DNA of 64,000 nucleotides from positions 64,899 to 128,898 of the forward strand of contig JALOLD010000009.1 in the NCBI GenBank assembly GCA_025456145.1, in the 5' to 3' direction. The translations under genes and the position numbers were made by a program. The notes under the pieces were generated by a model. It searched no databases and was not told the DNA's origin. It was given only the letters and a program-made list of their open reading frames with translations. Shown one piece after another: positions 10,891-58,143 of the stretch. The stretch comes from Thermoanaerobaculales bacterium. Its GTDB lineage: Bacteria; Acidobacteriota; Thermoanaerobaculia; Thermoanaerobaculales; Sulfomarinibacteraceae. The number at the start of each line of letters is the position of its first letter. Position 1 is the first letter of the stretch.

Positions 10891-11077
10891 CTCCGGCTCC
10901 GATACACTGGACGGACCTTCGGGTCGGGATCACGGAACCTTGGACATTTCGGACCTTGAACAGAACGGACGCAACGCGCGCAACGCCGGCGCGACCGCGG
11001 GCTCGGACCGCCCGCCGGTGCCCGATGTCGGACGGACGCTCGGTCACGCCGGCGTCACCACCGACGACGAGCGCTGG

Positions 11078-19084: not shown

Positions 19085-19087
19085 CCC

Positions 19088-39445: not shown

Positions 39446-39568
39446 CGAGATCGGTACGGGGCGCCGGGCTCGGCGAGCCGGCGGCGGGTCGTCCCCTCCC
39501 GACCCCCCGGCCGGCCGCCGGGTCCGGCGCTCGTTCGCCGGTCCCCAGTGGGTCGTGCCCCCGCCCCT

Positions 39569-41863: not shown

Positions 41864-41880
41864 CCGCCGGTCGTCCACGC

Positions 41881-43716
41881 CTACTCCGAGGCCGCCGGCA
41901 GCGTCCAGGTACGGAAGACCAGGCTCCGGTCGTCCTTCCACGCTCCGGTGACCGCGGACGAGAAGTAGCGACCGATGACGTCGGCATCGGGCACGGCCTC
42001 GGGGTCGCAGATCCCGAAGGTCGAGCCCTCGCCGTCGTCGAGGTCGATCTTCGGGAAGGCCGCGATGATCGGGAACAGCACCCCACCGAAGGCCGCGAGG
42101 TTCAGGACCTGAATCACCGAGGAACCTCGGGGCAGGACCGCCATCGCTGCCTGGACCCACGGTTGCTGCCACACCGCTTCCCCCCTCCCGGAGTAGGCGA
42201 GCAGAGCGTCCTCGAGGGTCACCAGCGAGCCCATGGAGACCAGAAGGTGGCGGTCGGTGACGACGTAGGCCAGCTGGTTTTCGGAACCCCCTTCCGCGGT
42301 TTGCGCCACGGAGGGGGTGTAGATCGTCTGCCCGGCGAACTCCCGGGTCGAGAACAGGTCGGAGCCGCGGCCGGCGATGGACTTCAGGTTCTCGATGGCG
42401 TTTTCGATCCCGCCGCGTTGCCGGATGCCCAGGACGAAGACCTGGTCCTGGGTCAGCTCGAGCTCGTCGGCGCTGCCGCCGGACACCCCGTGGTAGTTCT
42501 GGATCGTGATGAGCTCGCCGTCCAGGTTGTCGAGGAGATCGCGCTTGAGGTCGAGCTCGACGCCCGCCTGCTTGGCGGTGGCCTGGAGCTGCATCGCCGC
42601 CAGGGCCATCAGGGAGGGGTTGATGCCGTTGACGATCTCGACCACGGCCGACCAGGACGCGGCGACGTCGAACCTCGAGGTCGAGAAGGCGTCGCTTCCG
42701 GCTGGGATGAACGACGGGCGCGGAGCCTCCCCGGGGCCGTAGGCGAGGAGCTTGACCAGGCCGGTGTTCTCGGTGTAGGTCACTCCGATGGACGCTGTGG
42801 CGATCTCTCCCTGCTGCTCGCTGGTCACGAAGACCGCCTGCAACGCCTCGACCCCCAGCGCCTCGACCAGGGCTGCCGGGTCGAATGGGAAGAGGCTCTC
42901 GGTCTGCTCCGCCTCAGCCGCTGCGAACGCGACCAGGTCCGCGATGACGGGAGTCCAGGCATCCATGTCCAGGAAGACCCAGGAGTCGGCGCCGCGGACG
43001 TACCTCGCGACCGTGGCGAAGCTGTCGCCGTCATCCAGAGGGCGATCGACTCCGCCGTCGAGAATGCCGGCGACGACCCTCTCGAGAGTCCCGACCGGGT
43101 AGGCGTCCACCAGCACACCGTCCACGATCGCCCAGCCGGTCTCCATGGTGACCTCGTCACCCTCGAGGACCGTTTCCAGATGGAGGTCGACGCCGCGGAA
43201 CTCCCGGGTCTCGTAACGGACCGCCTCGCCGATGTCGTTCGCCTCGTTTACCGCCTCGTCCGCCAACCTCGCCTCCTGCTCGAGGAGAACGGCCTCGAGG
43301 GCGGGGCCGTTGTCGCCGACGGCTGCCAAGAGTGCGATCGAAAAGTCGGCGTCCTGCTCGCCCGGAGTGAGGTCAAGCTCGAAGGCGTCGACGAAGACGA
43401 CGAGCTGGCCGGTGAACATGGCGGCGATCTCGTCGATGGTGCGGCCGGTCTCCTGCCGCACGAGATCGTCCCACCGGTCGATTCGGATCTCCTCCCGCAG
43501 TGGTGCGAAGAACGCCTTGACCTGCGGGTCGTTCCAGAGCTTAGCGGTGGGCGAGCCCCGCCACGCCGCCAGGGTCGTCGGCACGTCGGCGACGGCGAAG
43601 ACCAGCGGCGAGCCGGAAGGGACCACGTCGGTCAGGCTCTCGACGGCGGCCTCGAGCGCCGGGGAGGCGACCAGCACGACGACAAGGGTGAACAGGATTG
43701 GGAGTCTCACGGTCAT
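41881..43716 (-). CDS. Secreted hypothetical protein (DUF3352-like)
   Basis: ATG at 43716 in an ATGA overlap with the protease stop. It has a signal peptide (LPILFTLVVVLVASPALEA). 611 aa. The family call is tentative. Confidence 0.65.
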   Translation of the reverse strand: MTVRLPILFTLVVVLVASPALEAAVESLTDVVPSGSPLVFAVADVPTTLAAWRGSPTAKLWNDPQVKAFFAPLREEIRIDRWDDLVRQETGRTIDEIAAMFTGQLVVFVDAFELDLTPGEQDADFSIALLAAVGDNGPALEAVLLEQEARLADEAVNEANDIGEAVRYETREFRGVDLHLETVLEGDEVTMETGWAIVDGVLVDAYPVGTLERVVAGILDGGVDRPLDDGDSFATVARYVRGADSWVFLDMDAWTPVIADLVAFAAAEAEQTESLFPFDPAALVEALGVEALQAVFVTSEQQGEIATASIGVTYTENTGLVKLLAYGPGEAPRPSFIPAGSDAFSTSRFDVAASWSAVVEIVNGINPSLMALAAMQLQATAKQAGVELDLKRDLLDNLDGELITIQNYHGVSGGSADELELTQDQVFVLGIRQRGGIENAIENLKSIAGRGSDLFSTREFAGQTIYTPSVAQTAEGGSENQLAYVVTDRHLLVSMGSLVTLEDALLAYSGRGEAVWQQPWVQAAMAVLPRGSSVIQVLNLAAFGGVLFPIIAAFPKIDLDDGEGSTFGICDPEAVPDADVIGRYFSSAVTGAWKDDRSLVFRTWTLPAASE

Positions 43717-44654
43717 TCGTCCCTCTCGGTGGAACCCGAGGTGTGTCGGGGCGGGCTGAGATACCGGAAGCCCGCGTTGGGGTGCCGAGGATCGAAGGCG
43801 AAGGCGTCGCGGTTTCGGAGGAACTCCTTGAGGGTGCTGACCCTGATGGCGAAGCCCAGACCTTCGATGCCGACGTCGTTCACCTTGAGCTGGTTGACTC
43901 CGACGACCTCGCCGCGCAGGTTGAACAAGGGCCCGCCCGAGTTCCCGGGGTTGACCTCGGCGGTGGTTTGGATGAGCAGCCGGCCCCCGGCGAGCCGGTC
44001 GGTGAGACTGATGATCCCCTCGGACACCGAGCGGTCGAGACCGAGGGGCGAGCCGACGGCGAACACGGGCTGCCCCTGGTGCAGGGTGTCGACGTCGCCG
44101 AGGGGAGCCGTTGCGAAGTCGTGGCCGCCGCCGTCCTCGATCTTGAGCAGGGCGAGATCCACCCATGGGTCGAGGGCGACGATCCGGACGTGCTCGAAGT
44201 GGATCTGCTCGAGCTCGTGCTCGGTCCGCCGGTAAAGGGTGATCGAGATCTGGTGCTCGCCGGAGATCACGTGCTGGTTGGTCACCACGTACCCCGACGG
44301 GTGGATGACGAATCCCGAGCCCAGCCCGATCGGCGTCCGGACCTGCACCACCGCCTCGCCGCAGCGCTCGATGTTTTCCTCGACGCTGAGCTCGGGGCGT
44401 CCTGGCTCCGTGCGGTAGAGATCCGGGCTCTTGGTCGCCGGGATCTCGGCCGCTTCGGTCTCGACGATCCGATCGACGGCGTTTCTGGGGATCTCGAGCA
44501 CACGGTAGCCCAGGTCGACCACGACAGTGTCCGCTTTCTCGAGCAGGATCTCGCCGGTCACCGAGCCACCGCCGTGCAGGTGGACCGTCTGCGACGCCTG
44601 TGCAGGGCTGCAAGTGGTGAGGATGACGGCCGCGATTGCAGTCGGGCTCTTCAT
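43713..44654 (-). CDS. Secreted trypsin-like serine protease (S1C/DegP catalytic domain, no PDZ seen)
   Basis: Catalytic triad context is VVTNQHV (His), DLALLKI (Asp) and GNSGGPLF (Ser). An N-terminal signal peptide is present. Confidence 0.85.
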   Translation of the reverse strand: MKSPTAIAAVILTTCSPAQASQTVHLHGGGSVTGEILLEKADTVVVDLGYRVLEIPRNAVDRIVETEAAEIPATKSPDLYRTEPGRPELSVEENIERCGEAVVQVRTPIGLGSGFVIHPSGYVVTNQHVISGEHQISITLYRRTEHELEQIHFEHVRIVALDPWVDLALLKIEDGGGHDFATAPLGDVDTLHQGQPVFAVGSPLGLDRSVSEGIISLTDRLAGGRLLIQTTAEVNPGNSGGPLFNLRGEVVGVNQLKVNDVGIEGLGFAIRVSTLKEFLRNRDAFAFDPRHPNAGFRYLSPPRHTSGSTERDE

Positions 44655-45175
44655 GCTTCGGCTGATTTCCCCTGATGCGCTGCGTTGGCACGAGGCGCGC
44701 CCACCGATCCAGTGTACCCGATCGTTCAGACCGGTCTTTTCGATCGTTCCCTCTGCGCTCCACCGCCCGTCGGGGCGTTTCCCTCGGAGGTGATCGTCGT
44801 CCGATGCCGCGACCGAAGGCGATCGACGGGCCCATTGTCAGCGGGACGAATTCGAAAGCAGGATCCGATCGAAGCTGAGCCGATTGGTCGGGGCCGCTTC
44901 AGATCGGGCGGGCAGTCCGCCTGCACCGTCGTGGCGCCGCTCGCCAGGCCGATCACGATCAGGGTCAACATCCGTACCTTCGGAACAGGCTGTCGTAACC
45001 GGCGTCGGGAAGACCGGGGCGGTTACCCGTCCCGGTCTTCCCGAAGCCCGATCTCTCACACCAGAACGATCGCGATCTCGTTGGGCCTGGCACTCGATGC
45101 GCCGGATGTACCGAACGTGCGCCGGATACGCCGAACGCGCGGACCACCCCAGCATCACGGAGTGACTCCCGACCA

Positions 45176-45245
45176 GGCGCCGGCCATCGACGACCGGGTG
45201 GTGGACGGTCGAGACCACGGTCCCCGCGACGCGACCGATCTTCAC
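45176..45245 (-). pseudogene. 5' fragment of a BMC-P (EutN/CcmL) gene, duplicate of the start of CDS 46448..46720
   Basis: GTG at 45245 followed by KIGRVAGTVVSTVHHPVVDGRRL, nearly identical to MKIGRVAGTVVSTVHHPVVDGRRL of the intact gene. Similarity is lost after about 23 codons. About 89% nucleotide identity over 83 bp (45176-45258 vs 46651-46733), counted by hand. Confidence 0.65.
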
Positions 45246-45301
45246 CGAGCCGCCTCCCGGCGGCCCGGCGAGCACGGCCGGACGGCCGGAACCGTGCTCG
45301 C

Positions 45302-46426
45302 TCACTTGGACCTCGACGCGCCGAGCACTCGGGCCACACGGCGGAACGGCAGGCGCAGCGGCACGGGGAGGCGACGGCTCCAGGGCAGTCCCCCCGAGGC
45401 GATCCGATCGGGCAGCACCTCGAAGAGCAGCCTCGCCCAACGTTCCACGATGGTGTCGACCGAGAACTCCCCCGCCCGACGCGCGCCGTTGGCGACCATT
45501 CGGGCGTAGAGCTCCGGATCATCGCGGAGTCGGCGCAGCGCTGCCAGCGCGTCGGCGGTGCCGCACACCTCGAAGTAGTCTTCCTCGCCCCGGCGGATCT
45601 CACGGCAGGCGTAGTCGACGCCGATGATCGCGGGCACCCGGGCGTACCACGCGTTGATCAGCTTGCTGGCGGGCTTGGCGAAGCGGAGCCGCCGCTCGTC
45701 CGGTCGGACCGCCACCACGACGTCGAGGTCGCTGTAGTCCTCCCAGCCGACGGCCGGGATCCTCGGCGTCTCCCGACTCCGCGCCATCCGGGGCACCCAC
45801 TCGAGGCCGAGATCGGCGACGGCGGAGCGCCAGCCGTCGCGTCGGAAGGCAGGGTGGAGGTTCTCGACCAGCCCCATGTAGCCGACCCGCCGGACCGTCG
45901 ACCCCCGCCCGGGGTCGCGAGCTCGGATGCCCGGCTGCGGCCAGTGGGGCACGAAGAAGCGCCGGCGGTCGTCGGCGAAACGGCCATTCTGCAGCACCTC
46001 GAAGTCGGCCAACAGGGGCGCGCTGTTGTCGGCCCTGGTCGCGACGAAGACCAGATCGGACCGCGCCGGGACCAGGCCCGCGAGCGCGTGCTTGTGCTTC
46101 GCGTGAAACACGACGATGCCCCGCTCCGGTGGCCGACCGACGAGCTCGACGGGATAGCCCGCCGCTCGCAGCCGAGCGTAGGTCTGGCCGATCCACGTCC
46201 GCTCGCCGCTGCTGAAGGCTGCAGGCTCGCGGTCGGGGTCGAGGTCCTTCAACTCGTCGAGGTCTGGCTCGTCGGCCAGAAAGAAGCGGACCGGCTCGCG
46301 AGCCTCCCCCTCTCCGAGCACGCCGGAGCGTTCACTGCCGGTGCGTGGGGTGGCGTCGTGCACGATGGACGATTCTAGCGAAACCTCGACCCGTCCGTCC
46401 CGGCCCGGACCGCGGCGAAGCAGCAC
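45302..46426 (-). CDS. Hypothetical protein with glycosyltransferase (GT-B) like C-terminal half
   Basis: 374-aa ORF with high GC3. The C-terminal pattern KPASKLINAWYARVPAII...EEDYFEV...DPELYARM...FSVDTIVERW resembles GT1/GT4 C-terminal domains. Start is uncertain (GTG 46426 is listed). Confidence 0.5.
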   Translation of the reverse strand: MLLRRGPGRDGRVEVSLESSIVHDATPRTGSERSGVLGEGEAREPVRFFLADEPDLDELKDLDPDREPAAFSSGERTWIGQTYARLRAAGYPVELVGRPPERGIVVFHAKHKHALAGLVPARSDLVFVATRADNSAPLLADFEVLQNGRFADDRRRFFVPHWPQPGIRARDPGRGSTVRRVGYMGLVENLHPAFRRDGWRSAVADLGLEWVPRMARSRETPRIPAVGWEDYSDLDVVVAVRPDERRLRFAKPASKLINAWYARVPAIIGVDYACREIRRGEEDYFEVCGTADALAALRRLRDDPELYARMVANGARRAGEFSVDTIVERWARLLFEVLPDRIASGGLPWSRRLPVPLRLPFRRVARVLGASRSK

Positions 46427-46447
46427 GCGAGCACGATGCCCGCGAGC

Positions 46448-46720
46448 TCAGCCGTTCAGGCTCACCGCGTCGACGATGCCGACGATCACCGAGCGGATCG
46501 GCGCGGCGGGCTCGTTGAGGACCTGGCGGGCGCCGGTGCCCTCGTCGAGCACGAGCACGGTCTCGCCGGCCCCGGCGTCGACCGCGTCGACCGCGATGAG
46601 GTAACGCCCGGTCGGCTCGAGATCGAGGCCGAGCAGGTCGACGAGGAGCAGGCGTCGGCCGTCGACCACCGGGTGGTGGACAGTCGAGACCACGGTCCCC
46701 GCGACGCGGCCGATCTTCAC
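46448..46720 (-). CDS. BMC vertex protein BMC-P (EutN/CcmL/PduN family), copy 3
   Basis: 90 aa. MKIGRVAGTVVST..HPVVDGRRLLLV....G....AVD.V.AG.GE.VLV matches the BMC-P family pattern. A GTGA overlap couples it to the upstream gene. Confidence 0.9.
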   Translation of the reverse strand: MKIGRVAGTVVSTVHHPVVDGRRLLLVDLLGLDLEPTGRYLIAVDAVDAGAGETVLVLDEGTGARQVLNEPAAPIRSVIVGIVDAVSLNG

Positions 46721-46992
46721 GGCGCCGCCTCGTGGAGCTGGTCGACGATCCCGACCACCGCGTGGTCGACCGGGACGAAGGTCTCTTGCAGGGCGAGCGC
46801 CGCCTCGCGGCTCGCGACGAAGTAGACGAGCTCGCCCGGTCCGGCCATCGCGACCGCGTCGGCCGCGACCACCGCATCGCCCGCCGGCTCGAGCCGCCGG
46901 TCGAGAGGCTGGAGGACGAGCAGCCGCACGCCCTCGAGACCGGGCGTCACGGTCGAGGCGACGACGGTGCCGATCACCCGTGCCAGGTGCAT
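46717..46992 (-). CDS. BMC vertex protein BMC-P, copy 2
   Basis: 91 aa. MHLARVIGTVVASTVTPGLEGVRLLVLQPLD...AADAVAMAGPGELVYF matches the BMC-P pattern. Confidence 0.9.
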   Translation of the reverse strand: MHLARVIGTVVASTVTPGLEGVRLLVLQPLDRRLEPAGDAVVAADAVAMAGPGELVYFVASREAALALQETFVPVDHAVVGIVDQLHEAAP

Positions 46993-47594
46993 CAGGCCTC
47001 CCCCGCGGTGAGCCGCGCCCGGAACTCGGGGCTCGCTGTGAGGTTGGCGAGCATCTCGTCGTGGAACTGCGGGATCACCACGCTCGCGACGAGCCGGTCG
47101 GCCGGCTCGACCGAAGCGGCGGCCAGCTCGACCGCGGCCTCGACCTCGGCGAGCGGTCCGGAGAGCACGCAGTAGGCCTTGCCGCCGAGGTCGTCGGCGA
47201 GGCGGATCTCGACCAGGCTGACCTCGGCCCCCTTGAGGCCGTGGTCGGCGGCGCGGATCGTCGCCGCCGCGGTGCTCGTCTCGACCACCCCGAGCGCCTC
47301 GCCCGAGGCGGCGCCGCGGCGGCCGAGCAGGGCCTGCACGACGTCGGGGTGGACCGCGGGCAGGTAGACCTCGTCGAGGAGGGCCGCTCGACCGGTCTCG
47401 AGCCCGGCCTGGTAGGCCTCCTCGACGCAGGCGACATCGCCCGCCACGAGCACCAGGAAGCGTCCCGGGTGGACGGTACCGGCGCGGACCACCGCGACCG
47501 GCGCCCGCTTGACCATGGCATCGCCGGCCAGCACCCCGATCGCGATCGAGCCGAGCTCGAGCAGCGCCAGCGCCGGCTGGTCGGCGAGGCTCAC
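46992..47594 (-). CDS. Tandem-domain shell protein BMC-T (single-layer PduT/HO-T1-like)
   Basis: GTG at 47594 in a GTGA overlap with the AldDH stop. 200 aa with two BMC domains (ALALLELGSIAIGVLAGDAMVKRAPV... and ALGVVETSTAAATIRAADHGLKGAEV...). Confidence 0.85.
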   Translation of the reverse strand: MSLADQPALALLELGSIAIGVLAGDAMVKRAPVAVVRAGTVHPGRFLVLVAGDVACVEEAYQAGLETGRAALLDEVYLPAVHPDVVQALLGRRGAASGEALGVVETSTAAATIRAADHGLKGAEVSLVEIRLADDLGGKAYCVLSGPLAEVEAAVELAAASVEPADRLVASVVIPQFHDEMLANLTASPEFRARLTAGEA

Positions 47595-49027
47595 ACGATC
47601 CTCAGACCGCCGGCGATCGCCAGGCGGCGCTCGCGCGACAGGCTGCGCGGCCGGGTCAGGCCCTCGCCGGTCGGGCTGGCGATCGAGAACGAGGTGAAGC
47701 CCTCGCCGCCGTCGCCGAGGCCGGCCAGGGTCGCGGCGTTGGCGACGAAGATGCTGACGTCGATCAGCCGCGCCATCCGGGTGATCGTGTCGACGTTGCG
47801 GCTGAAGATCGACGCGGTGTGGCCGAAGCCGTGCTCGGCCTGGACCGCGAGCGAGATCGCGCGGTCGACGTCGGGGACCCGGGCGACCGGCATCACCGGC
47901 ATCATCTGCTCGGTCCACACCAGGCTGTGCTCGACCGGCACGTCGGCGAGGACCAGCCGGACGTGGTCGGCGTTGGCGATCCCGATCGCGCCGAGGATCG
48001 CACCGGCGTCGCGGCCGATCCACTCGGGGTTGATCTTGCCGGGCGTGCCGTCGTGCCGCGACTCCCGGAAGATCAGCCGCTCGAGCCGAGTCAGCTCGTG
48101 GGCCGCGAGCAGGTGGCCGCCGGCGCCGCGCATCGCCTCGAGCAGCCGGTCGGCCACCGAGGCGACGACGAAGACCTCCTTCTCGTCGGTGCAGATGAGG
48201 TTGTTGTCGAAGGACGCGCCGCGGACGATCTCGCGCCCGGCGAGCTCGAGATCGGCGGTCTCATCGACGACCACCGGCGGGTTGCCCGGCCCGGCGAGGA
48301 TCGCCCGCTTGCCGCTCTTCCGCGCCTCCGCCACCACCCCCGGACCGCCGGTGACGAGCAGGATCCGGACGCCGGGGTGGCGCATCAGCGCCTGGGCGCT
48401 GGCGATCGTCGGCTCGGCGACGCAGCACACCAGGCTCGCGGGGCCGCCGGCCTCGACGATCGCCCGGTCGATCAGCCGGACCGCGTGGGCCGACACCCGC
48501 GCGGCGTTGGGGTGGCAGTTGAAGACCAGGGCGTTGCCGGCCGACACCCCGGCGATCGTGTTGTTGATGATCGTCGCGGTCGGGTTGGTGGTCGGGGTGA
48601 TGGCGCCGATGACGCCGAAGGGCGCGGGCTCGGTGAGGGTCAGCCCGCGGTCGCCGGTCCAGGTCTCGGGCTCGAGGTCCTCGGGTCCGGGGGTCTTGTC
48701 GGTGACCAGCAGGTTCTTCTTGACCTTGTCCTCGGCCCGGCCGAGACCGGTCTCGGCCTGCGCCATCTCGGCGAGCGATCGGGCGTGCTCGCGCATCACC
48801 GCGCGGATGCGCTCGACGATCCGGCGGCGGGCGTCGAGGCCCTGGGCGCGATACGCCAGGTACGCCGTTCGCGCCGCCTCGACCGCCTGGTCGACGGTGT
48901 CGTGGACGCCGCCCCCGGTCGCCGCCGGCGGCGCGGGCGCCGGGGGTCGGCCGCGGTCGCCGTCCCCGATCCTGCGCCGCACCCGGGCGACGATCGCCTG
49001 GATCTCGGTGTCGGTGATGGTCTTCAT
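47591..49027 (-). CDS. CoA-acylating aldehyde dehydrogenase (PduP/EutE type) with N-terminal encapsulation-peptide-like helix
   Basis: 478 aa. The catalytic Cys context is SFDNNLICTDEKEV. The N-terminus TDTEIQAIVARVRRRI is followed by a Gly/Pro linker before the ALDH core. Confidence 0.9.
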   Translation of the reverse strand: MKTITDTEIQAIVARVRRRIGDGDRGRPPAPAPPAATGGGVHDTVDQAVEAARTAYLAYRAQGLDARRRIVERIRAVMREHARSLAEMAQAETGLGRAEDKVKKNLLVTDKTPGPEDLEPETWTGDRGLTLTEPAPFGVIGAITPTTNPTATIINNTIAGVSAGNALVFNCHPNAARVSAHAVRLIDRAIVEAGGPASLVCCVAEPTIASAQALMRHPGVRILLVTGGPGVVAEARKSGKRAILAGPGNPPVVVDETADLELAGREIVRGASFDNNLICTDEKEVFVVASVADRLLEAMRGAGGHLLAAHELTRLERLIFRESRHDGTPGKINPEWIGRDAGAILGAIGIANADHVRLVLADVPVEHSLVWTEQMMPVMPVARVPDVDRAISLAVQAEHGFGHTASIFSRNVDTITRMARLIDVSIFVANAATLAGLGDGGEGFTSFSIASPTGEGLTRPRSLSRERRLAIAGGLRIV

Positions 49028-49053
49028 TCAGGCACTCCGGGTTGCGTTCGTGG

Positions 49054-49107
49054 GGGTGCCAGGCACACACCTTCGTTCGCGGCGAACAAAGTTGGAGCCA
49101 GGCACCC
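49054..49107. repeat. Intercistronic hairpin, paralogue of the 49791..49883 element
   Basis: Basal arms are GGGTGCCAGGC (49054-64) and GCCAGGCACCC (49097-107), with one central mismatch. Inner arms are CTTCGTTCGC / GCGAACAAAG. The element ends 26 nt upstream of the AldDH ATG on the coding strand. Confidence 0.7.
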
Positions 49108-49142
49108 GCTCCGACGCCCGCATCGGCCTTCCCGTCCGGAGG

Positions 49143-49457
49143 TCAACTGGCCCACTCGGAGTCGGCGGGGGTCTTGCGGTAGCGGACCTCGCCGCCGATC
49201 TCCCAGCTGTCGACGATCGCCATGACCACCGCGTCGCATGGCCGGTCGCGGGTCGCCTCGGTCTGCCGGGCCGACGAGCCGGCCGCCCAGAGCACGACAT
49301 CGCCCTCGCCCGCGCCGACGCTGTCGATCGCGACGACATGGCCCGAGGTCTCGCCGCCCGCGAGGTCGAGCTGGCGGACGAGCAGGAAGGTCTGGCCGAC
49401 GAGCCCCTCGTCCTTGCGGCTCGCGACCAGCGTGCCGACGACCCTCCCGAGGAGCAT
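49143..49457 (-). CDS. BMC vertex protein BMC-P, copy 1
   Basis: 104 aa. [31 protein letters not shown]...[14 protein letters not shown]. The TGATG junction shares one nucleotide with the BMC-H stop. Confidence 0.85.
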
Positions 49458-49765
49458 CAGGCCTTCCGCTTGGCCGCCGGCGCCGGCTCGCTGCGACCGA
49501 GGGGCAGCACCGCGTCGATGTTGCCGTGCGGCCGGGCGATGACGTGGGTCGACACCACCTCGCCGACGTTCTGGGCGGCGCGGACGCCCGCTTCGACCGC
49601 AGCCTTGACCGCCGCGACATCGCCCCGAACGACCGCCGTCACATAGCCGCCGCCGGTCTTCTCGTAGGACACCAGCTCGACCTTGGCGGCCTTGACCATG
49701 GCGTCCGACGCCTCGACCATCGCCGCGAACCCTCTCGTCTCGATCATCCCCAACGCTTCAGCCAT
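49457..49765 (-). CDS. Hexameric shell protein BMC-H (PduA/CcmK type)
   Basis: [58 protein letters not shown] is a canonical single BMC domain. Confidence 0.95.
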
Positions 49766-49790
49766 TGCATGCTCCTTTCGCGTCCTCGGG

Positions 49791-49883
49791 GGTGCCAGGC
49801 TTTAGAATCTTGGGAAGTTGTAGGTTCGCATTGCCGACTCGATCGCACCACCGCAACTTCCCAAGATTCTAAAGCCTGGCACC
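49791..49883. repeat. Perfect 30-nt-arm inverted repeat (hairpin) between BMC-T and BMC-H genes
   Basis: Left arm GGTGCCAGGCTTTAGAATCTTGGGAAGTTG (49791-49820). Right arm is its exact reverse complement (49854-49883). The loop is 33 nt. The arms are conspicuously less GC-rich than the surroundings. Confidence 0.95.
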
Positions 49884-49899
49884 CTGGTCTTCCGTTCTT

Positions 49900-50526
49900 T
49901 CAATCTCCTTCGCGTCCGGTGACCGATTCGATGGCGGCGACCGCCGCCTGCCAGCCGACGTCGATGTCCTTCTCCTCGCCGCCGAGATAGACCCGGCCCA
50001 TCGAGCCGAACGCCCGCACCTCGAGGATGTTGATCTCCGCCGCCTTCTCGGCCTGGTTGGCGGCGAGCGCCGCGTAGGCCGCCGGCTCGACCTCCATCAC
50101 GTACATCGTCTGCCCGGGCACGATCATGTGACCGTGCCGCATCCGGTTGATGAGCTGAACCTGGTGGTCGTCGAGGTGGCGGATGACCTGGCTCGAGAGG
50201 ATCTTCGGCTTGCGCCGGGCGCCCTCGTCGAGGCCGAGCTCCGCGAGGATCGCCGCCCCCGCGGCGCGGGTCTCGGCCTGGTTCTCCGAGTGGACCTCGA
50301 GCAGCCCGTAGAAGCGCTCGACGACCTGCATCCCGGGCCGCACCCGGGTCGCCTTGAGGGCGACGTCGGTGAGCCGGTTGATCTCGATCCCAGGCGAGAT
50401 CTCGACCCACAGCGAGGCGTCTCCGGCGAGCGGCAGAAAGCCCTGGGCGACGGTCCCGAGAAAGGCCGCGTACTGGGGCTGCAGGTTGTCGAGGAAGACG
50501 TACGATCGAAGGTCAATACGACTCAC
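49900..50526 (-). CDS. Permuted tandem-domain shell protein BMC-T (CcmP/CsoS1D double-stacking type)
   Basis: 208 aa. From memory, [46 protein letters not shown] and [19 protein letters not shown] closely parallel carboxysomal CcmP. GTG start. Confidence 0.85.
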
Positions 50527-51343
50527 CGGAACCTCCTTCGTCGCCGGTCACGATCTTGATCCCGGCCGACGCGCCGATGCGGCTCGCACCGGCCCTGATC
50601 ATGGCCCGCGCCTCGCCGGCGGTGTGGATCCCGCCGGCCGCCTTGACGCCCATCTTCTCGCCCACCGTCTCGCGCATCAGCGCGACGTCGAACACCGTCG
50701 CCCCGCCCGGGCCGAACCCGGTCGAGGTCTTGACGAAGTCGGCGCGGGCCAGCTGGGCGAGGCGGCATGCGACGACCTTCTCCTCGTCGCTCAGATAGGC
50801 CGCCTCGATGATCACCTTGTTGAGCGCCCCGACCTCGCGGCAGGCGTCGGAGACGCCGGCGATGTCGCGCCGCACCAGCTCGTGGTCGCCGCCCTTGAGC
50901 GCGCCGATGTTGATCACCATGTCGATCTCGCGCGCCCCGTCGCGCAGCGCCCGCCGCGCCTCCATCGCCTTGATCTCGGGCAGGCTCGCCCCGAGCGGAA
51001 AGCCGACCACCGAGGCGACGGTCACCCGGGCGCCGCGCAGCCGGCGGGCCGCCCGCGCGACCCACACCGGGTTGATGCAGACCGCCGCGAAGTGGAAGTC
51101 GGCGGCCTCGTCGCACAGCGTGTCGATGTCGGCCGGAGTCGCGTTCGGCCTGAGCAGGGTGTGGTCGATGTACTCGGCGAGCCCGGCCGGCACCTCGGCG
51201 GCGGCGCCGCTGTAGCCGAGCCGGACCGCGCCGTTGGCGACCGCCTCGCTCGCGTTGTCGAGCCCGCCCCCGGTCTCGGCGGCGGCGAGCACCGCCAGCA
51301 CCTGCCGCGTGATCTCCTCGATCAGCTCGCTACGATCGATCAT
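50513..51343 (-). CDS. deoC: Deoxyribose-phosphate aldolase (DeoC) with N-terminal encapsulation-peptide-like extension
   Basis: ATG at 51343 in an ATGA overlap with the rpiB stop. The core carries IDHTLLRP and the Schiff-base Lys context FVKTSTGF. The N-terminus [18 protein letters not shown] plus a ~35-aa Gly/Ala linker precedes the core. Confidence 0.9.
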
Positions 51344-51891
51344 CCGCCCTCTCCCGCTGGGCCCGCCGACGCGTAGCACCGCTCGACGGCGGTGATCTTC
51401 GCCACCCGGGCGGCGTGGCGCCCCGGTCCCCACTCGGTGGCCAGCCACTCGTCGACGATCCCACGCGCCAGGGCCTCGCCGATCAGCCCGGCGCCCAGGG
51501 TGAGGACGTTGGCGTGGTTGTGCTCACGGCTGTTGCGCGCCGTCGACAGGTCATAGCACAGCGCCGCCCGGACCCCGGGCACCTTGTTGGCGACCATCGC
51601 CGACCCGATTCCCGCGCCGTCGACGACGATCCCCCACCGGCACTCGCCCGCCGCGACCAGACGCGCGACGGCGTGGGCGAAGTCCGGGTAGTCCACCGCC
51701 TCGGTGCTCGAGGTTCCGCAGTCGCGCACCTCGCGGCCCCGGCTCCTGAGGTGCTCGAGGAGGAGCTCCTTGAGCCGGAAGCCGCCGTGGTCGGCGCCGA
51801 TCGCGATCGCCTCGCGGCTCGGGCCGTTGCCCGCGAGCACCTCGTCGACCACCTGCGCCACGACCCGCCGCACCTCCTGCTCGGTGGTCAC
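51340..51891 (-). CDS. rpiB: Ribose-5-phosphate isomerase B / sugar-phosphate isomerase (RpiB/LacAB) with N-terminal encapsulation-peptide-like extension
   Basis: GTG at 51891, 13 nt after the TetR stop. The core carries IAIGADHGG, GIVVDGAGIGSAMVANK and NANVLTLG. The N-terminal extension is TTEQEVRRVVAQVVDEVLAG. Confidence 0.85.
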   Translation of the reverse strand: MTTEQEVRRVVAQVVDEVLAGNGPSREAIAIGADHGGFRLKELLLEHLRSRGREVRDCGTSSTEAVDYPDFAHAVARLVAAGECRWGIVVDGAGIGSAMVANKVPGVRAALCYDLSTARNSREHNHANVLTLGAGLIGEALARGIVDEWLATEWGPGRHAARVAKITAVERCYASAGPAGEGG

Positions 51892-51904
51892 GACCGCCCC
51901 CCGA

Positions 51905-52531
51905 TCACCAGGCCCGCCAGTCGGCGCCGGCCCCGGATCCCCGGTGGATGACCGGCGCCGCGACCGGGGCGCCCCCGGCCAGACCGAGCCACCTCTCGAG
52001 CTGGATCGCACAGAGCTCCACCGGCGCCGGGTCGCCCCCGGCGCGGGCCATCACCGCGGCGCCCTCGAGCGCGCCGACCACGAGCTCGGCGAGCTCGCGA
52101 TGGCCGGTGGGCTCGAGCCAGCCCGCGACCCGGTCGACCAGGCTTCGGTAGATGCCGCCGACCCGGTCGCGGGCCGGCGCCCGCTCCGCTCCGAGCTCGG
52201 TGACCAGGGCGCCGACCGGCAGACCGAAGCCGGGGGCGCCGGGTCGAGCGTGCTCGCGGTAGGCCGCCGCCAGCCCGGCGACCCGCCGACCCGGGTCGTC
52301 GGTCGAGGCCTCGACCACGGCGAGAACCTCGTCGTCGACCATCTCGCCGACGCTCTCGAGGACCGCGAGCAGCAGATCGTCCTTGGTCGGGAAGAAGTGG
52401 TAGAAGCTGCCGCTGGTCGCCCCGGCCCGCTCGATGATGAGGCTGACCCCGGTGTCGGCGTAGCCCTGCCGCCAGAAGAGCTCGCCGGCGGTTCGGACCA
52501 GCCGCTCCCGGGTCGTCGTTCGCCTCACCAC
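51905..52531 (-). CDS. TetR/AcrR-family transcriptional regulator (first gene of the BMC operon)
   Basis: GTG start preceded by GGAGG. The HTH region is RTAGELFWRQGYADTGVSLIIERAGATSGSFYHFF. Confidence 0.9.
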   Translation of the reverse strand: MVRRTTTRERLVRTAGELFWRQGYADTGVSLIIERAGATSGSFYHFFPTKDDLLLAVLESVGEMVDDEVLAVVEASTDDPGRRVAGLAAAYREHARPGAPGFGLPVGALVTELGAERAPARDRVGGIYRSLVDRVAGWLEPTGHRELAELVVGALEGAAVMARAGGDPAPVELCAIQLERWLGLAGGAPVAAPVIHRGSGAGADWRAW

Positions 52532-52565
52532 GCTACCTCCGCTCGAGCCGTCGGGAACAGAGTAA

Positions 52566-52579
52566 ATAGAACGTTCTAT
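52566..52579. promoter_or_regulatory. 14-bp perfect palindrome ATAGAACGTTCTAT, candidate TetR operator
   Basis: Read directly. It lies 35 nt upstream of the TetR start, in an AT-richer patch. Confidence 0.5.
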
Positions 52580-52656
52580 CTAATTCCATCATAGGTCCGG
52601 GAAAACCATCTGTCAAGCGCTCACCCGGGCTCGCAGGCTCTGCGACAAGAGGAGAC

Positions 52657-52668
52657 GTTCTAGAGAAC
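52657..52668. promoter_or_regulatory. Second inverted repeat GTTCT-AG-AGAAC sharing the same half-site
   Basis: Read directly. It has the same AGAAC/GTTCT half-sites as 52566-52579 in the opposite arrangement, about 90 bp further upstream. Confidence 0.35.
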
Positions 52669-52844
52669 TCAATCTACATTCGATCGGAGGCACGACCGTG
52701 CCCCCACCGTCCGACCGTCCCGACCCGGTCCCGATCTGAGGGGCGCGAGCGCCTTCCCGGCGCCGCGGGATCGAGGGATCGAGGGTGGAATCTCGACGCG
52801 ATCGAGCGACAGGACCGGCGGTCCCGGCGATCCAGGGGGCCCCG

Positions 52845-53771
52845 TCAGCCGACCGCCTCGAGCACGTACCGCACCGCTGTGACCAGGATGACCAGGCAGA
52901 GCATGATCTTGATCGCCCGCGCCGGGACGTGCTTCTGGACGCGGGCGCCGCAGTACATCCCGGCCGCGCCGCCGAGCCCGAAGAGCAGACCGAGCAGCCA
53001 GTCGGGCCCGACTCCGAGCCAGCTGTAGAAGGCGACCCCGGCGACCGAGGTGACGAGGGTGCCGAGGAGGGCCGCCCCGGCGACCGTGTAGACCGGCAGG
53101 CCGAAGACCGAGACGAAGAAGGGCGCCATGATCGCGCCGCCGCCGATGCCGTAGATCCCACCCGCGATGCCGACCGCGAAGGCGAGGGCAAAGATCCCGA
53201 GGGTCGGGAAGGCGAAGGACTCGCCGTAGAACTCGTACTCGATCCGCGCCGGGCTGACCCGGGTGACCCGAACCGCGGGCAGGAGCTCGCCCCCCTCCTC
53301 GGCGAGCCGTCGGCGCGCCGACGCGAGCTGCTGGAACCGCTCCTCGGCCGAGCGCGCGGCGACGCCGCGCCTGCTTCTGCCGAGTAGGTCGGCGGCCATC
53401 CGGACGCCGATGTAGAGCAGCACCCCGGCGGCGAAGAGCTTGAAGCTGCGCGGGTCGGGGAGGACCCGGACCCGGATCACGGCGCCGATCAGCACCCCGG
53501 GCAGCGTGGCGGCGACCACGACCCAGGCGAGCGGCCACACCATCCGCCCCTCGCGGACGTACCGCCAGACCCCGCTCGGGATCGCGACGACGTTGAACAG
53601 GTGGTTGGTGGCGCTCACCGACGGCGCGGCGTAGCCGAGCACGCTGACCTGGAAGGGCAGCAGCAGGAAGGCCCCGGAGACCCCGCCCATCGAGGTGAAG
53701 AACGAGATGACGAAGGCCACGAGGGGCGGGATCCACGCTGCGACCGTGACACCGGACACCTCGAACTCCAC
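52845..53771 (-). CDS. TauE/SafE (DUF81) family anion permease
   Basis: GTG at 53771 preceded by GAGGAG. 308 aa. Two halves each carry GMGGVSGAF / GIGGGAIMAPF-type motifs. Confidence 0.85.
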   Translation of the reverse strand: MEFEVSGVTVAAWIPPLVAFVISFFTSMGGVSGAFLLLPFQVSVLGYAAPSVSATNHLFNVVAIPSGVWRYVREGRMVWPLAWVVVAATLPGVLIGAVIRVRVLPDPRSFKLFAAGVLLYIGVRMAADLLGRSRRGVAARSAEERFQQLASARRRLAEEGGELLPAVRVTRVSPARIEYEFYGESFAFPTLGIFALAFAVGIAGGIYGIGGGAIMAPFFVSVFGLPVYTVAGAALLGTLVTSVAGVAFYSWLGVGPDWLLGLLFGLGGAAGMYCGARVQKHVPARAIKIMLCLVILVTAVRYVLEAVG

Positions 53772-53782
53772 GGTTGGCTCCT

Positions 53783-56089
53783 CTAGCTCGGACCGCCGAG
53801 GGCCCGCTCGAGCTCGGCCGTGAGGTCGCGGCCGAGGGGGTTGTCGGGGTGGGCGGCGGTCATCCTCCGGGCCACCACGAGGGCAGCCTGGAGATCGCCG
53901 GTTCGTGCGTAGTGATCCGCCAGGGCGAGGAGGGCGTCGAGGCTGGTGGGATCGAGCTCGACCGCCCGTCGCAGCGCCGTCCCGGCATCCTCGATCCGGC
54001 CCACCGCCTGGAGCGCGAGACCGAGGTTGTAGTGGGCGCGCACCCAATCCGGCTCGAGCTCGACCGTGCGCTCGAGGAGGGCCACCGCCTCGTCGACCCG
54101 GCCCATCTCGGCGAGCAGCAGGCCGAGGGAGTAGGTCGCCTGCCCGTCCTCCGGCTGGGCGTCGAGGACCTCCCGGAGCAGGACCTCCGCCTCGTCGTTG
54201 CGGCCGAGCGAGCTGAGCAGCACCGCCAGGTTCATCTTGGCCGGGATGAACAGGCCGTCGACCTCGAGGGCCGCGCGGTACATCTCGACCGCCCGCTCGC
54301 TGTCCCCGAGCCGGGCGGCGAGGTTGCCGAGATTGTGGCCGGCGAAGGCGAAGTCCATAGAGGCGAGCATGTCGGCCTCGTGCTCGGCGACGACCTCGGC
54401 GAGCCGGTCGCGCTGGTAGGGCCGCAGCAGCCCGTCGGGCGCCCCGGCGAGCCGGCTCGCGGCGAGCGTGCGAACCCCTCGCACCGGGTCGAAGAGCAGC
54501 GGCGCGAGCTTCTCGACGAGCTGCTCGGCGGTCATCCCCGGCAGGCCCTCGACCGCGGCCCGACGGATGATCGGCTCGGGGTCGGCGAGGGCGAGGTCGA
54601 AGAGGGCGCCGACCTCGGCGTCCGGGTCGTAGCCCCCGAGCAGGCTGATCGCGGTCGCGCGGACGATCGCCGGATACAGGGGGTCGCCGGCGAGCCGGAT
54701 CAAGGGCTCGCGCGCCTCGGGCGAGCCGGCGCGGCCGCCCGCGATAACTGTGCCGTAGTGGGGCTTGCGCGCTCTGCCATACCAGGCCTCGTGCTCGGCG
54801 ATCTGCCAGTCGAGGCTCTTGTCGGCGTGGCAGCCGGTCTGGCCGCAGGCGTTGGGGACCCCGATCGACCGGGTCAGATCGGGCCGCGGCACCCGGAAGC
54901 TGTGATCCGCCCGCCAGTCGACGACCATGAAGGGCCGCTCGGGCATGTGGCAGGAGACGCAGCGCGCCCCCGCCGACGGCTTCCCATCGACGACCTTCTT
55001 GTGGAAGTGGTGGTCGGGGCTGTCATAGGTGTCGAGCCGATGGCACTGGCCGCACAGCTCGTTGCCCTCGGCCCGGAGCTCGAGGCTGTGGACGTCGTGG
55101 CAGTCCGAGCAGCGGACGTCGTTCGCGTACATCTTGCTCTGGAGGAAGGAGCCGTAGACATAGACCTCGTCGAGGATCTGGCCGTCCGGGTGGTACAGCC
55201 CTTCGTCGAGCAGCGCCGGCACCAGCCGGTCGAGGAGCTCGTGGCTGCTGTGGCTGAAGTCGCCGAGCTCGGAGCGGCGCGAGTGACAGGGGGCGCACAG
55301 CTCGACCTGCTCCCGCGAGGTGATGCCGCTCGTCTGGACCACCAGCCCGTCGCCATCGCCGACCGGCCGGGCCATCGGCGGCAGCTCCGCCCAGGCGACG
55401 TGGGCCGAGCCCGGGCCGTGGCAGGCCTCGCAGCTGACGTCGATCTCCGACCAGGTCGTCGAGAAGCTCCGGCTCGCGAAGTCGTAGCCCTTGACCAGGT
55501 TGGTCGAGTGGCACTCGGCACACATCCCGTTCCAGTTCTGGGCGTTGCGGGTCCAGTGGAGCCAGTCGTCGGGCGGGATGTCGCGATCCGGGTAGAGGTG
55601 GAACCACTCGCCGCGGACCGAGTCCCAGGCGATGCTCAGGGCCTGCAGCCGGCCGCCCGGAAAGGGCACCAGGTACTGCTGGAGCGGGTCGTGGCCGAAG
55701 GTGTAGGCGATCTCGAAGTCCCCCATCTCGCCGTCGGGACCCTCGGTGCGGACGAAGAAGCCGCCGTCTCGTCGGAAGAAGAGGCTGGTGATCCCGCGGT
55801 GGACAAAGGTCGCGTCGGCGAAGTCGCCGAGCACCGTCTCCTCGGTGGCCTCGGCCATCGCCAGGTCGTGGTCCGAGCCGGCCCAGGCCTCGGCGGCAGC
55901 GGCGTGGCAGCCCGCACAGCGCTCCCGGCCGACGAAGACCGGCGGGGCGACCGGCCCTGCGGCGCCTCGGCCCACGGGCTCGATCACCAGCGACAGGGGC
56001 ACCGCGACGACGATCACCGCGGTCGAGACGGCGCCCAGGAGCTTCCACGGGCGGAGGAGGTCGCCGGCGCCCCCCGGCGCCGCGGTCAT
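53783..56089 (-). CDS. Membrane-anchored multihaem cytochrome c (7 CxxCH + 1 CxxxxCH) fused to HEAT/TPR repeats
   Basis: ATG at 56089 in an ATGA overlap with the upstream stop. It has an N-terminal TM. Haem motifs are CAGCH, CAECH, CEACH, CAPCH, CSDCH, CGQCH, CVSCH and CGQTGCH. The C-terminal ~330 aa are helical repeats. Confidence 0.85.
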   Translation of the reverse strand: MTAAPGGAGDLLRPWKLLGAVSTAVIVVAVPLSLVIEPVGRGAAGPVAPPVFVGRERCAGCHAAAAEAWAGSDHDLAMAEATEETVLGDFADATFVHRGITSLFFRRDGGFFVRTEGPDGEMGDFEIAYTFGHDPLQQYLVPFPGGRLQALSIAWDSVRGEWFHLYPDRDIPPDDWLHWTRNAQNWNGMCAECHSTNLVKGYDFASRSFSTTWSEIDVSCEACHGPGSAHVAWAELPPMARPVGDGDGLVVQTSGITSREQVELCAPCHSRRSELGDFSHSSHELLDRLVPALLDEGLYHPDGQILDEVYVYGSFLQSKMYANDVRCSDCHDVHSLELRAEGNELCGQCHRLDTYDSPDHHFHKKVVDGKPSAGARCVSCHMPERPFMVVDWRADHSFRVPRPDLTRSIGVPNACGQTGCHADKSLDWQIAEHEAWYGRARKPHYGTVIAGGRAGSPEAREPLIRLAGDPLYPAIVRATAISLLGGYDPDAEVGALFDLALADPEPIIRRAAVEGLPGMTAEQLVEKLAPLLFDPVRGVRTLAASRLAGAPDGLLRPYQRDRLAEVVAEHEADMLASMDFAFAGHNLGNLAARLGDSERAVEMYRAALEVDGLFIPAKMNLAVLLSSLGRNDEAEVLLREVLDAQPEDGQATYSLGLLLAEMGRVDEAVALLERTVELEPDWVRAHYNLGLALQAVGRIEDAGTALRRAVELDPTSLDALLALADHYARTGDLQAALVVARRMTAAHPDNPLGRDLTAELERALGGPS

Positions 56090-57864: not shown

Positions 57865-58143
57865 ACCCCCCCTGGAGCGGACCGACCCATGATACCCGGA
57901 CGCGGAGGGGAGCCCGGCGTTCCCCGGTTCGACCCGAGAGCCGACGACGCCGCCGGCGCCCGTGCGGTCAGCCGACACCGCCCCAAGATCCAGCCGCGAG
58001 CCGATCACCTCTGCCTCGCCGTCGCCGTTCCTGCCGCTGGCCCGATGGCTGCCCCGCGATCATGGAGGGGCTCACTAAATGAAATGTTGTCTCAATATTA
58101 ATAACAGAGTTTGCCTAGAATGATTCCTGATCGGAGGATCTCG

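Follow-up and report, generated by a model that had tools for sequence, protein, structure and literature searches.

We analysed a 64,000-nucleotide stretch of a Thermoanaerobaculales (Acidobacteriota) metagenome-assembled genome (MAG; contig JALOLD010000009.1), hereafter the window, which has a G+C content of about 72% and carries on its minus strand the genes for a bacterial microcompartment (BMC). The gene series runs from position 52531 to 45302 in the order TetR-family regulator, RpiB-like protein (also called RPI-like here, after ribose-5-phosphate isomerase (RPI)), deoxyribose-5-phosphate aldolase (DeoC, or DERA), CcmP-like double-permuted BMC trimer (BMC-Tdp), BMC-H, BMC-P, CoA-acylating aldehyde dehydrogenase (AldDH), PduT-like trimer (BMC-Ts), BMC-P, BMC-P and a GT-B-fold gene (Table 1). 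Pfam, NCBIfam and PDB sequence searches identified all of these genes except the last, which was recognised by its predicted fold, and an initial annotation made from the sequence alone had listed the same genes in the same order. The gene limits agree with the gene calls of two sibling MAGs (RPI 183 aa, DERA 276 aa, Ts 200 aa). The nine core genes and the TetR gene align with their relatives essentially from end to end, and the core genes are free of frameshifts.

Table 1. Features of the microcompartment locus, in the direction of transcription (window coordinates).
Feature	Position	Strand	Evidence
Sigma-70-like promoter TTGACA-17-TATGAT, 5' of the TetR gene	52588..52616	-	11/12 consensus positions
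AT-rich palindrome TAGATAGAAC/GTTCTATTTA, putative TetR operator just 3' of the -10 box	52563..52582		10-nt arms, 90% complementary, no spacer
TetR-family regulator, first operon gene	51905..52531	-	PF00440 E 6e-14; TetR_C_13_2 E 3e-7
RpiB-like protein, 183 aa	51340..51891	-	PF02502 (LacAB_rpiB) E 2e-52
DERA, 276 aa	50513..51343	-	PF01791 E 8e-17; TIGR00126 equivalog 266 bits, cut-off 117
BMC-Tdp, CcmP-like double-permuted tandem BMC-domain trimer, 208 aa	49900..50526	-	CcmP 4HT5/5LSR E 1e-86
Palindromic hairpin between BMC-Tdp and BMC-H	49791..49883	-	31-bp perfect stem, -70 kcal/mol, z -8.6
BMC-H, hexameric main shell protein	49457..49765	-	PF00936 E 1e-30
BMC-P1, vertex pentamer	49143..49457	-	PF03319 E 3e-26 over the full profile
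Degenerate hairpin copy between BMC-P1 and AldDH	49055..49106	-	Same termini; whole spacer -58 kcal/mol, z -2.8
CoA-acylating AldDH (EutE/PduP type), 478 aa	47591..49027	-	NF011927 599 bits, cut-off 403, profile positions 2-465 of 465; Pfam Aldedh E 5e-42
BMC-Ts, PduT-like tandem BMC-domain trimer, 200 aa, two BMC domains	46992..47594	-	PduT 3N79 E 2e-32
BMC-P2	46717..46992	-	PF03319 E 1e-22
BMC-P3	46448..46720	-	PF03319 E 2e-24; last cassette gene in all inspected relatives (best 80 of at least 537)
GT-B-fold glycosyltransferase-like gene	45302..46426	-	AlphaFold model and Foldseek
'Scar', 86-nt direct repeat of the BMC-P3 ribosome-binding site and first 25 codons	45171..45256	-	91% identical to 46646-46731
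Strong hairpin 3' of the fragment, possible operon terminator	45001..45048	-	22-nt arms 91% complementary; -45.6 kcal/mol, z -6.3; no T-tract

To place the locus among its relatives, GTDB species representatives were scanned with the AldDH. This yielded at least 537 confirmed matches, the best 80 of which we inspected. The order RPI-DERA-Tdp-H-P-AldDH-Ts-P-P was found in 80 of these 80 loci, which are labelled as Thermoanaerobaculales/Acidobacteriota, Acidimicrobiia and other Actinomycetota, Chloroflexota, Polyangiaceae/Chondromyces (Myxococcota-type) and Verrucomicrobiota. Among the matches listed, the closest relatives (77-81% AldDH identity) were MAGs of Thermoanaerobaculales and Holophagae.

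Six genes of the cassette encode shell proteins, and profile searches recovered the shell families that the initial annotation had proposed: one PF00936 gene for BMC-H (E 1e-30) and three PF03319 genes for BMC-P (E 1e-22 to 3e-26). The edge motifs KAAK and ARPH of BMC-H are kept in 71 of 72 relatives. The three BMC-P proteins share 35-48% mutual identity; P2 and P3 overlap by 4 nt, and P1 adjoins BMC-H. The Pfam BMC profile gives BMC-Tdp only 22 bits, and the match to CcmP (4HT5) covers residues 4-206; because this match is nearly full length, the protein is assigned as a double-permuted BMC-Tdp. Its ranking in the PDB runs from CcmP (E 1e-86) through the BMC-T of Haliangium ochraceum (HO; 5V74/5V76, about E 1e-70) to CsoS1D (E 3e-54). 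A Glu-Arg pair that aligns with the one in CcmP, and that we take to be the pore gate, is kept in all relatives. The PduT-like trimer, BMC-Ts, has a His at the position of PduT Cys38 (TVHPGRF versus TISPGKF in the C38S crystal form), where its relatives have His or Gln.

The aldolase is a DERA by both profile and motif. Solved DERAs (E 6e-75) align from residue 55 onward, leaving an N-terminal extension of about 55 aa, and the motifs DMVIN (within EIDMVIN), VKTSTGF and GVKAAGG align with theirs and are kept in all relatives. At motif level the protein thus has the Schiff-base Lys, the second Lys and the proton-relay Asp of a class I DERA, which we take, from Dwyer 2024 and general knowledge, to be D102, K167 and K201 of the E. 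coli enzyme. The AldDH, deposited as 'aldehyde dehydrogenase EutE', has the conserved catalytic-Cys motif NNLICTDEK. As a side observation, many Actinomycetota, Chloroflexota and Myxococcota-type relatives (L015-L019, L022, L023, L025, L031, L033, L034, L036, L037 and L040-L046) carry a Cys-rich insert of roughly C-x2-C-x-G-x-C-A-A-x-C between the N-terminal helix and the DERA fold, which could bind a metal or an Fe-S cluster. The clade of the window is without it.

The third enzyme is best described as RpiB-like, as it belongs to RpiB by fold and profile (150 bits against a cut-off of 138.65 for the NCBIfam rpiB equivalog) but is without the catalytic residues of that family. When aligned with the RpiB structures 3PH3/3HE8, its VVDGAGIGS stands opposite VICGTGLGIS, such that Asp-Gly-Ala-Gly replaces the catalytic Cys-Gly-Thr-Gly. 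Both Cys66 and Thr68 (E. coli numbering) are therefore absent, Thr68 being replaced by Ala. The variant is nearly invariant: of 60 homologues linked to the cassette, 59 have DGAG. The protein also retains the D-H, H-N and R-H-x-x-R motifs.

All three enzymes begin with a conserved amphipathic helix followed by a variable linker, with hydrophobic moments of 0.60-0.66. In the RpiB-like protein this helix is EQEVRRVVAQVVDEVL, and in the AldDH it is TEIQAIVARVRRRI, followed by a Pro/Ala linker; these two helices and that of DERA are conserved in relatives. Such helices are the expected signature of encapsulation peptides (EPs), suggesting that all three enzymes are cargo; we refer to them as EP-like.

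The gene content places the locus among the sugar-phosphate-utilisation (SPU) microcompartments, which fall into seven subtypes in the catalogue of Sutter et al. 2021 (PMC8217296). A PF01791 DERA and an acylating AldDH lie among six shell genes, three of them of family PF03319. The initial annotation had already proposed the SPU class, and the published compositions narrow the assignment to SPU3. According to Supplementary Data 2 of the catalogue, the only enzymes of SPU3 loci are an AldDH, a PF01791 and a PF02502 protein, with EPs at the amino ends of both the AldDH and the PF01791 enzyme; the shell consists of one BMC-H, a BMC-P triplet, a CcmP-like Tdp and a Ts without PduS or pore cysteine, and Acidobacteria are among the phyla listed (Sutter 2021). 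About 70 open reading frames (ORFs) were scanned with Pfam; between them they account for the coding frames along all 64 kb of the window. The enzymes of the locus are limited to AldDH, PF01791 and PF02502, with no phosphotransacylase (PTAC), alcohol dehydrogenase (AlcDH) or PduS among these ORFs. As in SPU3 (Sutter 2021; Dwyer 2024), the RPI gene lies upstream of the DERA gene, and EP-like helices are present at the N-termini of AldDH and DERA. The shell comprises one single-domain PF00936 gene (a 'standard' BMC-H as judged from the motifs quoted in the catalogue), three BMC-P genes, two of them adjacent, a Tdp whose best PDB match is CcmP, and a Ts without a pore cysteine. Because the locus agrees with the SPU3 definition feature for feature, it is an ordinary new example of the subtype rather than an oddity. 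We read it as an intact SPU3-type microcompartment (metabolosome) operon and, on this sequence evidence, put the probability that the locus is of the SPU3 type at about 0.9.

Other known assemblies fit less well. The SPU6 loci of Chloroflexi (Dwyer, Sutter and Kerfeld 2024, PMC11585597) have in common with the window the DERA signature with an N-terminal extension, an RPI-like protein without the catalytic cysteine, a BMC-Tdp and the lack of PTAC. They differ in that their AldDH has a C-terminal EP and falls on another branch of the AldDH tree, their Tdp belongs to the 'blue' clade, they encode a EutQ-like small protein, and they are found in Chloroflexi only. We rejected SPU6 because the AldDH of the window does not extend C-terminally beyond the end of the NF011927 profile and has its helix at the N-terminus, the Tdp is CcmP-like, no EutQ-like ORF was found at the locus and the host is an acidobacterium. 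SPU2, which has a fourth, green-clade BMC-P, a Ts that usually carries the pore cysteine and sometimes PduS, was rejected since the window has three intact BMC-P genes, the additional fragment described below copies P3 and not P1, and the Ts pore residue is His. The HO-type BMC resembles the locus in its BMC-T, its BMC-P triplet, the N-terminal EP on its AldDH and its lack of PTAC. Its main loci, however, are without DERA and RPI (a PF01791 enzyme occurs elsewhere in only some genomes), whereas both are inside the operon here, and it was likewise rejected.

SPU3 has been catalogued so far in 31 genomes (Sutter 2021). With at least 537 related stretches, and the cassette shared by all 80 inspected, the subtype is evidently far commoner than that. 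The initial annotation stated that no member of the SPU class had been characterised experimentally, which no longer holds: the DERA and RPI of an SPU6 locus were purified and assayed in 2024 (Dwyer 2024), and an SPU-type shell from Hodarchaeales self-assembles according to a 2025 preprint (PMC12747264). No SPU3 locus itself is known to have been studied so far.

Taken as a whole, an SPU3 operon working by the published SPU mechanism is the best explanation of the locus. We consider this combination likely, although we hold its mechanistic details less firmly than the assignment. A single promoter 5' of the TetR gene would drive the operon, with repression relieved by a ligand. BMC-H hexamers would form the facets of the shell and three distinct BMC-P pentamers would cap its vertices, with the CcmP-like BMC-Tdp forming stacked, gated trimers and the PduT-like BMC-Ts lacking the pore cysteine that binds an Fe-S cluster. 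The cargo would be the enzymes with conserved N-terminal amphipathic helices. Judging by the enzyme families and the published SPU model, deoxyribose-5-phosphate would enter the shell, where DERA would convert it into glyceraldehyde-3-phosphate plus acetaldehyde. The volatile, toxic acetaldehyde would be trapped and oxidised by AldDH with CoA and NAD+, yielding acetyl-CoA and NADH. The organelle thus most likely breaks down the sugar of DNA. Of the chemistry predicted in the initial annotation, the conversion of deoxyribose-5-phosphate into glyceraldehyde-3-phosphate plus acetaldehyde, and thence to acetyl-CoA, coincides with the published SPU model, but the pentose-phosphate isomerase step is doubtful, as the RpiB-like protein lacks the catalytic Cys and Thr.

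In outline, this scheme resembles the Pdu and Eut systems, in which a signature enzyme frees an aldehyde that an acylating AldDH turns into an acyl-CoA within a BMC-H/T/P shell with encapsulated cargo. It differs from them in its carboxysome-like gated BMC-Tdp, in a PduT-like trimer that is without the Fe-S-binding cysteine, and in that the window yielded neither a phosphotransacylase nor an alcohol dehydrogenase. Without these two enzymes, the locus has no private recycling of CoA or NAD+, unlike Pdu and Eut. PTAC and AlcDH are not encoded, as in every SPU3 locus, so the cofactors (CoA/acetyl-CoA and NAD+/NADH) most likely cross the shell through the large gated pore of BMC-Tdp, as hypothesised in print. 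Nearly every SPU1, SPU4 or SPU7 locus has PTAC, AlcDH is confined to part of the SPU2, SPU4 and SPU6 loci, and where PTAC is absent the locus typically has a BMC-Tdp, the proposed exit for acetyl-CoA (Dwyer 2024).

Several points weigh against this account. The placement of the three BMC-P proteins in colour clades, which is part of the published definition of SPU3, lies outside our match, and the SPU3 label rests on the other features. The substrate, the encapsulation of the enzymes and the assembly of the shell are all inferred, and no gene supplying deoxyribose-5-phosphate was found near the operon. The 64 kb of genome seen leave room for a satellite locus encoding PTAC, AlcDH or PduS. Finally, in the RpiB-like protein the Asp and the residues that bind the sugar phosphate are strictly conserved, which speaks against a purely structural role and suggests that the protein has retained ligand binding or has an altered catalytic role.

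A satellite locus would make the organelle self-sufficient in cofactors, like Pdu and Eut, with an encapsulated phosphotransacylase and an NAD+ recycler (AlcDH or a PduS-type protein) encoded outside the window. There is precedent for this, as some SPU subtypes carry PTAC, AlcDH or PduS, and split or satellite loci exist. The sequence of the window and its relatives points the other way. The Pfam scan of the window found no PduL/PTAC, Pta, iron alcohol dehydrogenase, PduS, triosephosphate isomerase or class II aldolase (PF06130, PF01515, PF00465, PF01512 and PF00121 had no match), nor a pentose kinase, phosphopentomutase, nucleoside phosphorylase or obvious nucleoside transporter. In five close relatives, ten ORFs sampled next to the cassette included no PTAC, alcohol dehydrogenase, PduS or triosephosphate isomerase and have no relation to BMC function; they match GWxTD, rhomboid, TPR, histidine kinase, MscS, AcrB and subtilase families and, in one weak case, Aldedh, and two have no match. 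The Ts lacks the pore cysteine that accompanies PduS, the BMC-Tdp typical of PTAC-less loci is present (Dwyer 2024), and the SPU3 description names no such enzymes and calls satellite loci uncommon (Sutter 2021). Given this evidence, a self-sufficient organelle seems improbable to us, and shuttling of cofactors through BMC-Tdp remains the preferred explanation.

The same scan bears on what the initial annotation had considered unusual. Its observation that PduL, alcohol dehydrogenase, kinase, mutase and transporter are missing holds for the window, but the absence of PduL and AlcDH is a defining trait of SPU3 (three enzymes and a 1H/2T/3P shell; Sutter 2021) and not a peculiarity. It had also reasoned that pduL and adh genes beyond the scarred end of the locus would reduce it to an ordinary SPU locus; neither gene lies there, yet the locus is an ordinary SPU locus all the same, such that their presence or absence does not discriminate. 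How a metabolosome copes without PTAC and AlcDH is a genuine question, recognised in the literature for SPU2, SPU3, SPU5 and SPU6, and is not peculiar to this locus.

We next consider the role of the RpiB-like protein, which is most likely a packaging partner that binds DERA, or a protein with altered activity, rather than a ribose-5-phosphate isomerase. The loss of the catalytic cysteine agrees with findings on SPU6, whose RPI had little or no ribose-5-phosphate (R5P) isomerase activity and formed a complex with active DERA (Dwyer 2024). The alternative is that the protein is an active isomerase that uses the Asp as its base, in which case the organelle would handle another or an additional sugar phosphate (pentose, deoxypentulose or tetrose phosphate) upstream of DERA. 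The near-invariance of Asp-Gly-Ala-Gly and the retained substrate-binding motifs would be unexpected for a mere scaffold, the score exceeds the rpiB equivalog cut-off, and a carboxylate base is functional in M. tuberculosis RpiB (cited in Dwyer 2024). Yet the SPU6 homologue shows little or no R5P isomerase activity, the second catalytic residue is also replaced, and R5P cannot be linked to DERA without transketolase (Dwyer 2024). We therefore regard an active isomerase as a minority possibility and continue to favour a packaging partner or altered activity.

Elements of these explanations can be combined. In a joint reading, SPU3 organelles, that of the window among them, would have no private cofactor pool and would shuttle cofactors through the CcmP-like BMC-Tdp. 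The RpiB-like protein would be a functional sugar-phosphate binder (either an enzyme whose specificity has changed or a packaging factor that responds to a ligand) and no dead scaffold, and in this lineage a TetR switch would set expression together with the hairpins around BMC-H and BMC-P1, which would tune the ratio of shell to enzymes. We offer this only tentatively and think it less probable than not. Its cofactor part has already been proposed in print, and the parts on the RpiB-like protein and on regulation draw on conservation patterns only.

Regulation of the operon appears to start at the TetR gene, which heads the series, as the initial annotation had stated, and stops 13 nt before the start of the RPI-like gene. 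The promoter upstream of it is the only strong promoter-like site between 44500 and 53000. The palindrome that lies just downstream of the -10 box has a core, TAGAACGTTCTA (TAGAAC/GTTCTA), that was found at the same place in six related loci (L001, L002, L004, L005, L007 and L013). These loci also share the layout of promoter and palindrome 5' of TetR, frequently accompanied by another, weaker copy of the palindrome upstream of the -35 box. Orthologues of the regulator (37-56% identity) occur at the same position only in Thermoanaerobaculales/Acidobacteriota relatives (best 80 of at least 537 loci). These patterns make the palindrome a candidate TetR operator for Thermoanaerobaculales SPU3 loci; its position at the start of transcription would suit an operon that is autoregulated and derepressed by a ligand. 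The regulator may thus offer a route to the natural inducer. Neither TetR nor a conserved operator-like palindrome is mentioned in the SPU3 description. Separately, we noted the second, weaker copy of the palindrome in the window at about 52656-52677, and the motif TAGATAGAACGTTCTAnTT of the palindrome at the transcription start.

Two hairpins bracket the BMC-H/BMC-P1 pair, a further difference from the published SPU3 description. Both have the termini GGTGCC(A/T)GG and CC(A/T)GGCACC. One related locus (L001) carries two near-identical hairpins (9140-9237 and 9890-9987), one in each of these spacers, whose inner stem differs from that of the window, and another (L005) has a single hairpin (9924-9987) at the second spacer, with arms matching those of the first hairpin of the window. 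The inner stems differ entirely between genomes and are homogeneous within one genome. The 31-nt arm of the window also recurs in two metagenome contigs without BMC genes (L108, 3765-3844 and about 1236-1266; L110, about 210-331), arguing for a dispersed palindromic repeat rather than a BMC-specific RNA. The hairpins may be such a repeat, resembling repetitive extragenic palindromes or miniature inverted-repeat transposable elements, and may act in mRNA processing or stability; that their recurrent position around BMC-H and BMC-P1 tunes either process is speculation. One of the two contigs also carries an IS110-family transposase.

In other close relatives the corresponding spacers contain unrelated hairpins or AT-rich heptamer repeats, and distant SPU3 loci have almost no spacer. 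A metagenome scan for GGTGCCAGG-N50-80-CCTGGCACC returned at least 120 stretches, none of those listed having BMC genes; the palindromes were heterogeneous, so the terminal 9-mer is not diagnostic. Rfam gave no family match, only sub-threshold miRNA-type matches that reflect the hairpins, and a literature search for the motif GTACGGTGCCAGG found no report. We rejected a reading of CTGGCAC, at the 3' end of both hairpins, as part of a sigma-54 promoter, as there is no GC or TTGC at the -12 spacing in the window, L001 or L005. Apart from the hairpins, the Tdp/H spacers of five related loci (L004, L005, L007, L013 and L014) consist of AT-rich tandem repeats of 7-8 nt (GAATTTT, GGATTTT, GAATTTC) in genomes with 63-68% G+C.

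What is new at the locus is chiefly the candidate operator of TetR, the hairpins and the invariant replacement of Cys-Gly-Thr-Gly by Asp-Gly-Ala-Gly. Its value is practical more than conceptual: the set of SPU3 loci gains a well-preserved member from a Thermoanaerobaculales MAG, and its compact nine-gene cassette, with a single promoter, a candidate operator and clear EP-like helices, is a convenient candidate for heterologous reconstitution.

Downstream of BMC-P3, a GT-B gene and a BMC-P fragment are appended to the cassette, which again sets the locus apart from the SPU3 description. The GT-like gene had no Pfam, NCBIfam or PDB match (phmmer and a 32-sequence profile reached a best E of 0.36 against the PDB). 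Its AlphaFold model, built from the 32-sequence alignment (pLDDT 86.7, pTM 0.84; residues 1-33 of low confidence), matches only GT-B/GT4 glycosyltransferases, with SenB, BshA, MshA, HepE and TreT at the top of the Foldseek search. The 'GT-like' label of the initial annotation therefore stands for the predicted fold, but the gene does not belong to the BMC cassette, as it is missing from all inspected related loci (best 80 of at least 537). The family is common in Acidobacteriota in non-BMC contexts, and its homologues elsewhere adjoin Peptidase_M23, Rce1-like and Branch genes.

The gene could in principle have been recruited into the organelle, for example to modify a shell protein or the substrate. 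Its start follows BMC-P3 by 21 nt, the two genes share a strand and nothing between them resembles a terminator; a hairpin follows the stop codon of the GT-like gene. Its absence from related loci, the neighbours of its homologues and the lack of an evident EP-like N-terminal helix (in the low-confidence part of the model) make recruitment very improbable. We conclude that the GT-B gene, together with the BMC-P fragment, which is likewise missing from the 80 inspected loci, was inserted later and only in this lineage, and is no part of the organelle.

The fragment is real, and the initial annotation was right that the end of the locus is scarred. An assembly artefact was rejected because positions 44521-47702 are 100% identical to an independent Logan contig and the fragment is exact in the two sibling MAGs, which are 99.9% identical to the window over 14 kb. 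Of the 8 differences between the fragment and P3 over 86 nt, seven are coding, and six of these are synonymous. Identity is 91% to the resident P3 and at most 76% to the P3 of any relative, which excluded a horizontally acquired BMC-P as its source. The mostly synonymous differences imply that the copy belonged to a working gene during most of its divergence and, with its closeness to the resident gene, point to a once-functional paralogue or allele within the lineage as its source.

The insertion is part of a lineage-specific block of about 8.5 kb (about 38000-46430) between BMC-P3 and a rhomboid gene, comprising the GT-like gene, the 86-nt P3 fragment, an S1 protease, a 611-aa protein, an FG-GAP protein and a 480-aa ORF. 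The genes of the block were not found in L004, L005 or L006, and in L006 about 280 nt separate BMC-P3 from the start of the rhomboid gene; the 480-aa ORF adjoins P3 in L002. A truncated BMC-P copy, a foreign gene and 8.5 kb of DNA separating the cassette from its ancestral neighbour might be taken as signs of a decaying, non-functional locus whose operon end has been disrupted. However, neither the TetR gene nor any of the nine core genes is truncated, their catalytic and shell motifs are conserved, the complete BMC-P3 lies intact upstream of the insertion, and the arrangement is stable across three MAGs. Decay is thus highly unlikely, and an intact SPU3 operon with an insertion at its 3' side accounts better for the locus.

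The surroundings of the cassette are otherwise conserved. The flanks of L004, L005 and L006 match those of the window on both sides, in the shared order cytochrome b/Rieske, multihaem-TPR, TauE, cassette, rhomboid, small ORF, SpoIIE, HATPase anti-sigma-like, STAS, MlaE, ABC and MlaD. In the window, the downstream neighbours are the S1 protease, the FG-GAP protein, rhomboid, SpoIIE and the Mla genes.

Elsewhere in the window, a pantothenate/CoA cluster, about 27 kb from the operon, and a riboflavin cluster occupy about 16300-19441 and about 10733-13788. The first encodes ketopantoate hydroxymethyltransferase, pantoate-beta-alanine ligase, CoaC-like and CoaB-like domains in different frames and aspartate decarboxylase; the riboflavin cluster encodes RibD and a lumazine-binding riboflavin synthase, and no link to the BMC is evident for either. 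ARAGORN called a 94-nt tRNA-Arg(tcg) at 58983-59076 on the minus strand, inside a glutamate-synthase-like ORF (58105-59592), its length and position suggesting a false positive. Upstream of the operon, at 52845-58008, the minus strand encodes a permease of the TauE/SafE type, a fusion of multihaem cytochrome c with HEAT and TPR repeats, and a cytochrome b/Rieske fusion. This trio occurs in the same order in L001 and L004, and L005 and L002 keep the parts covered by their stretches.

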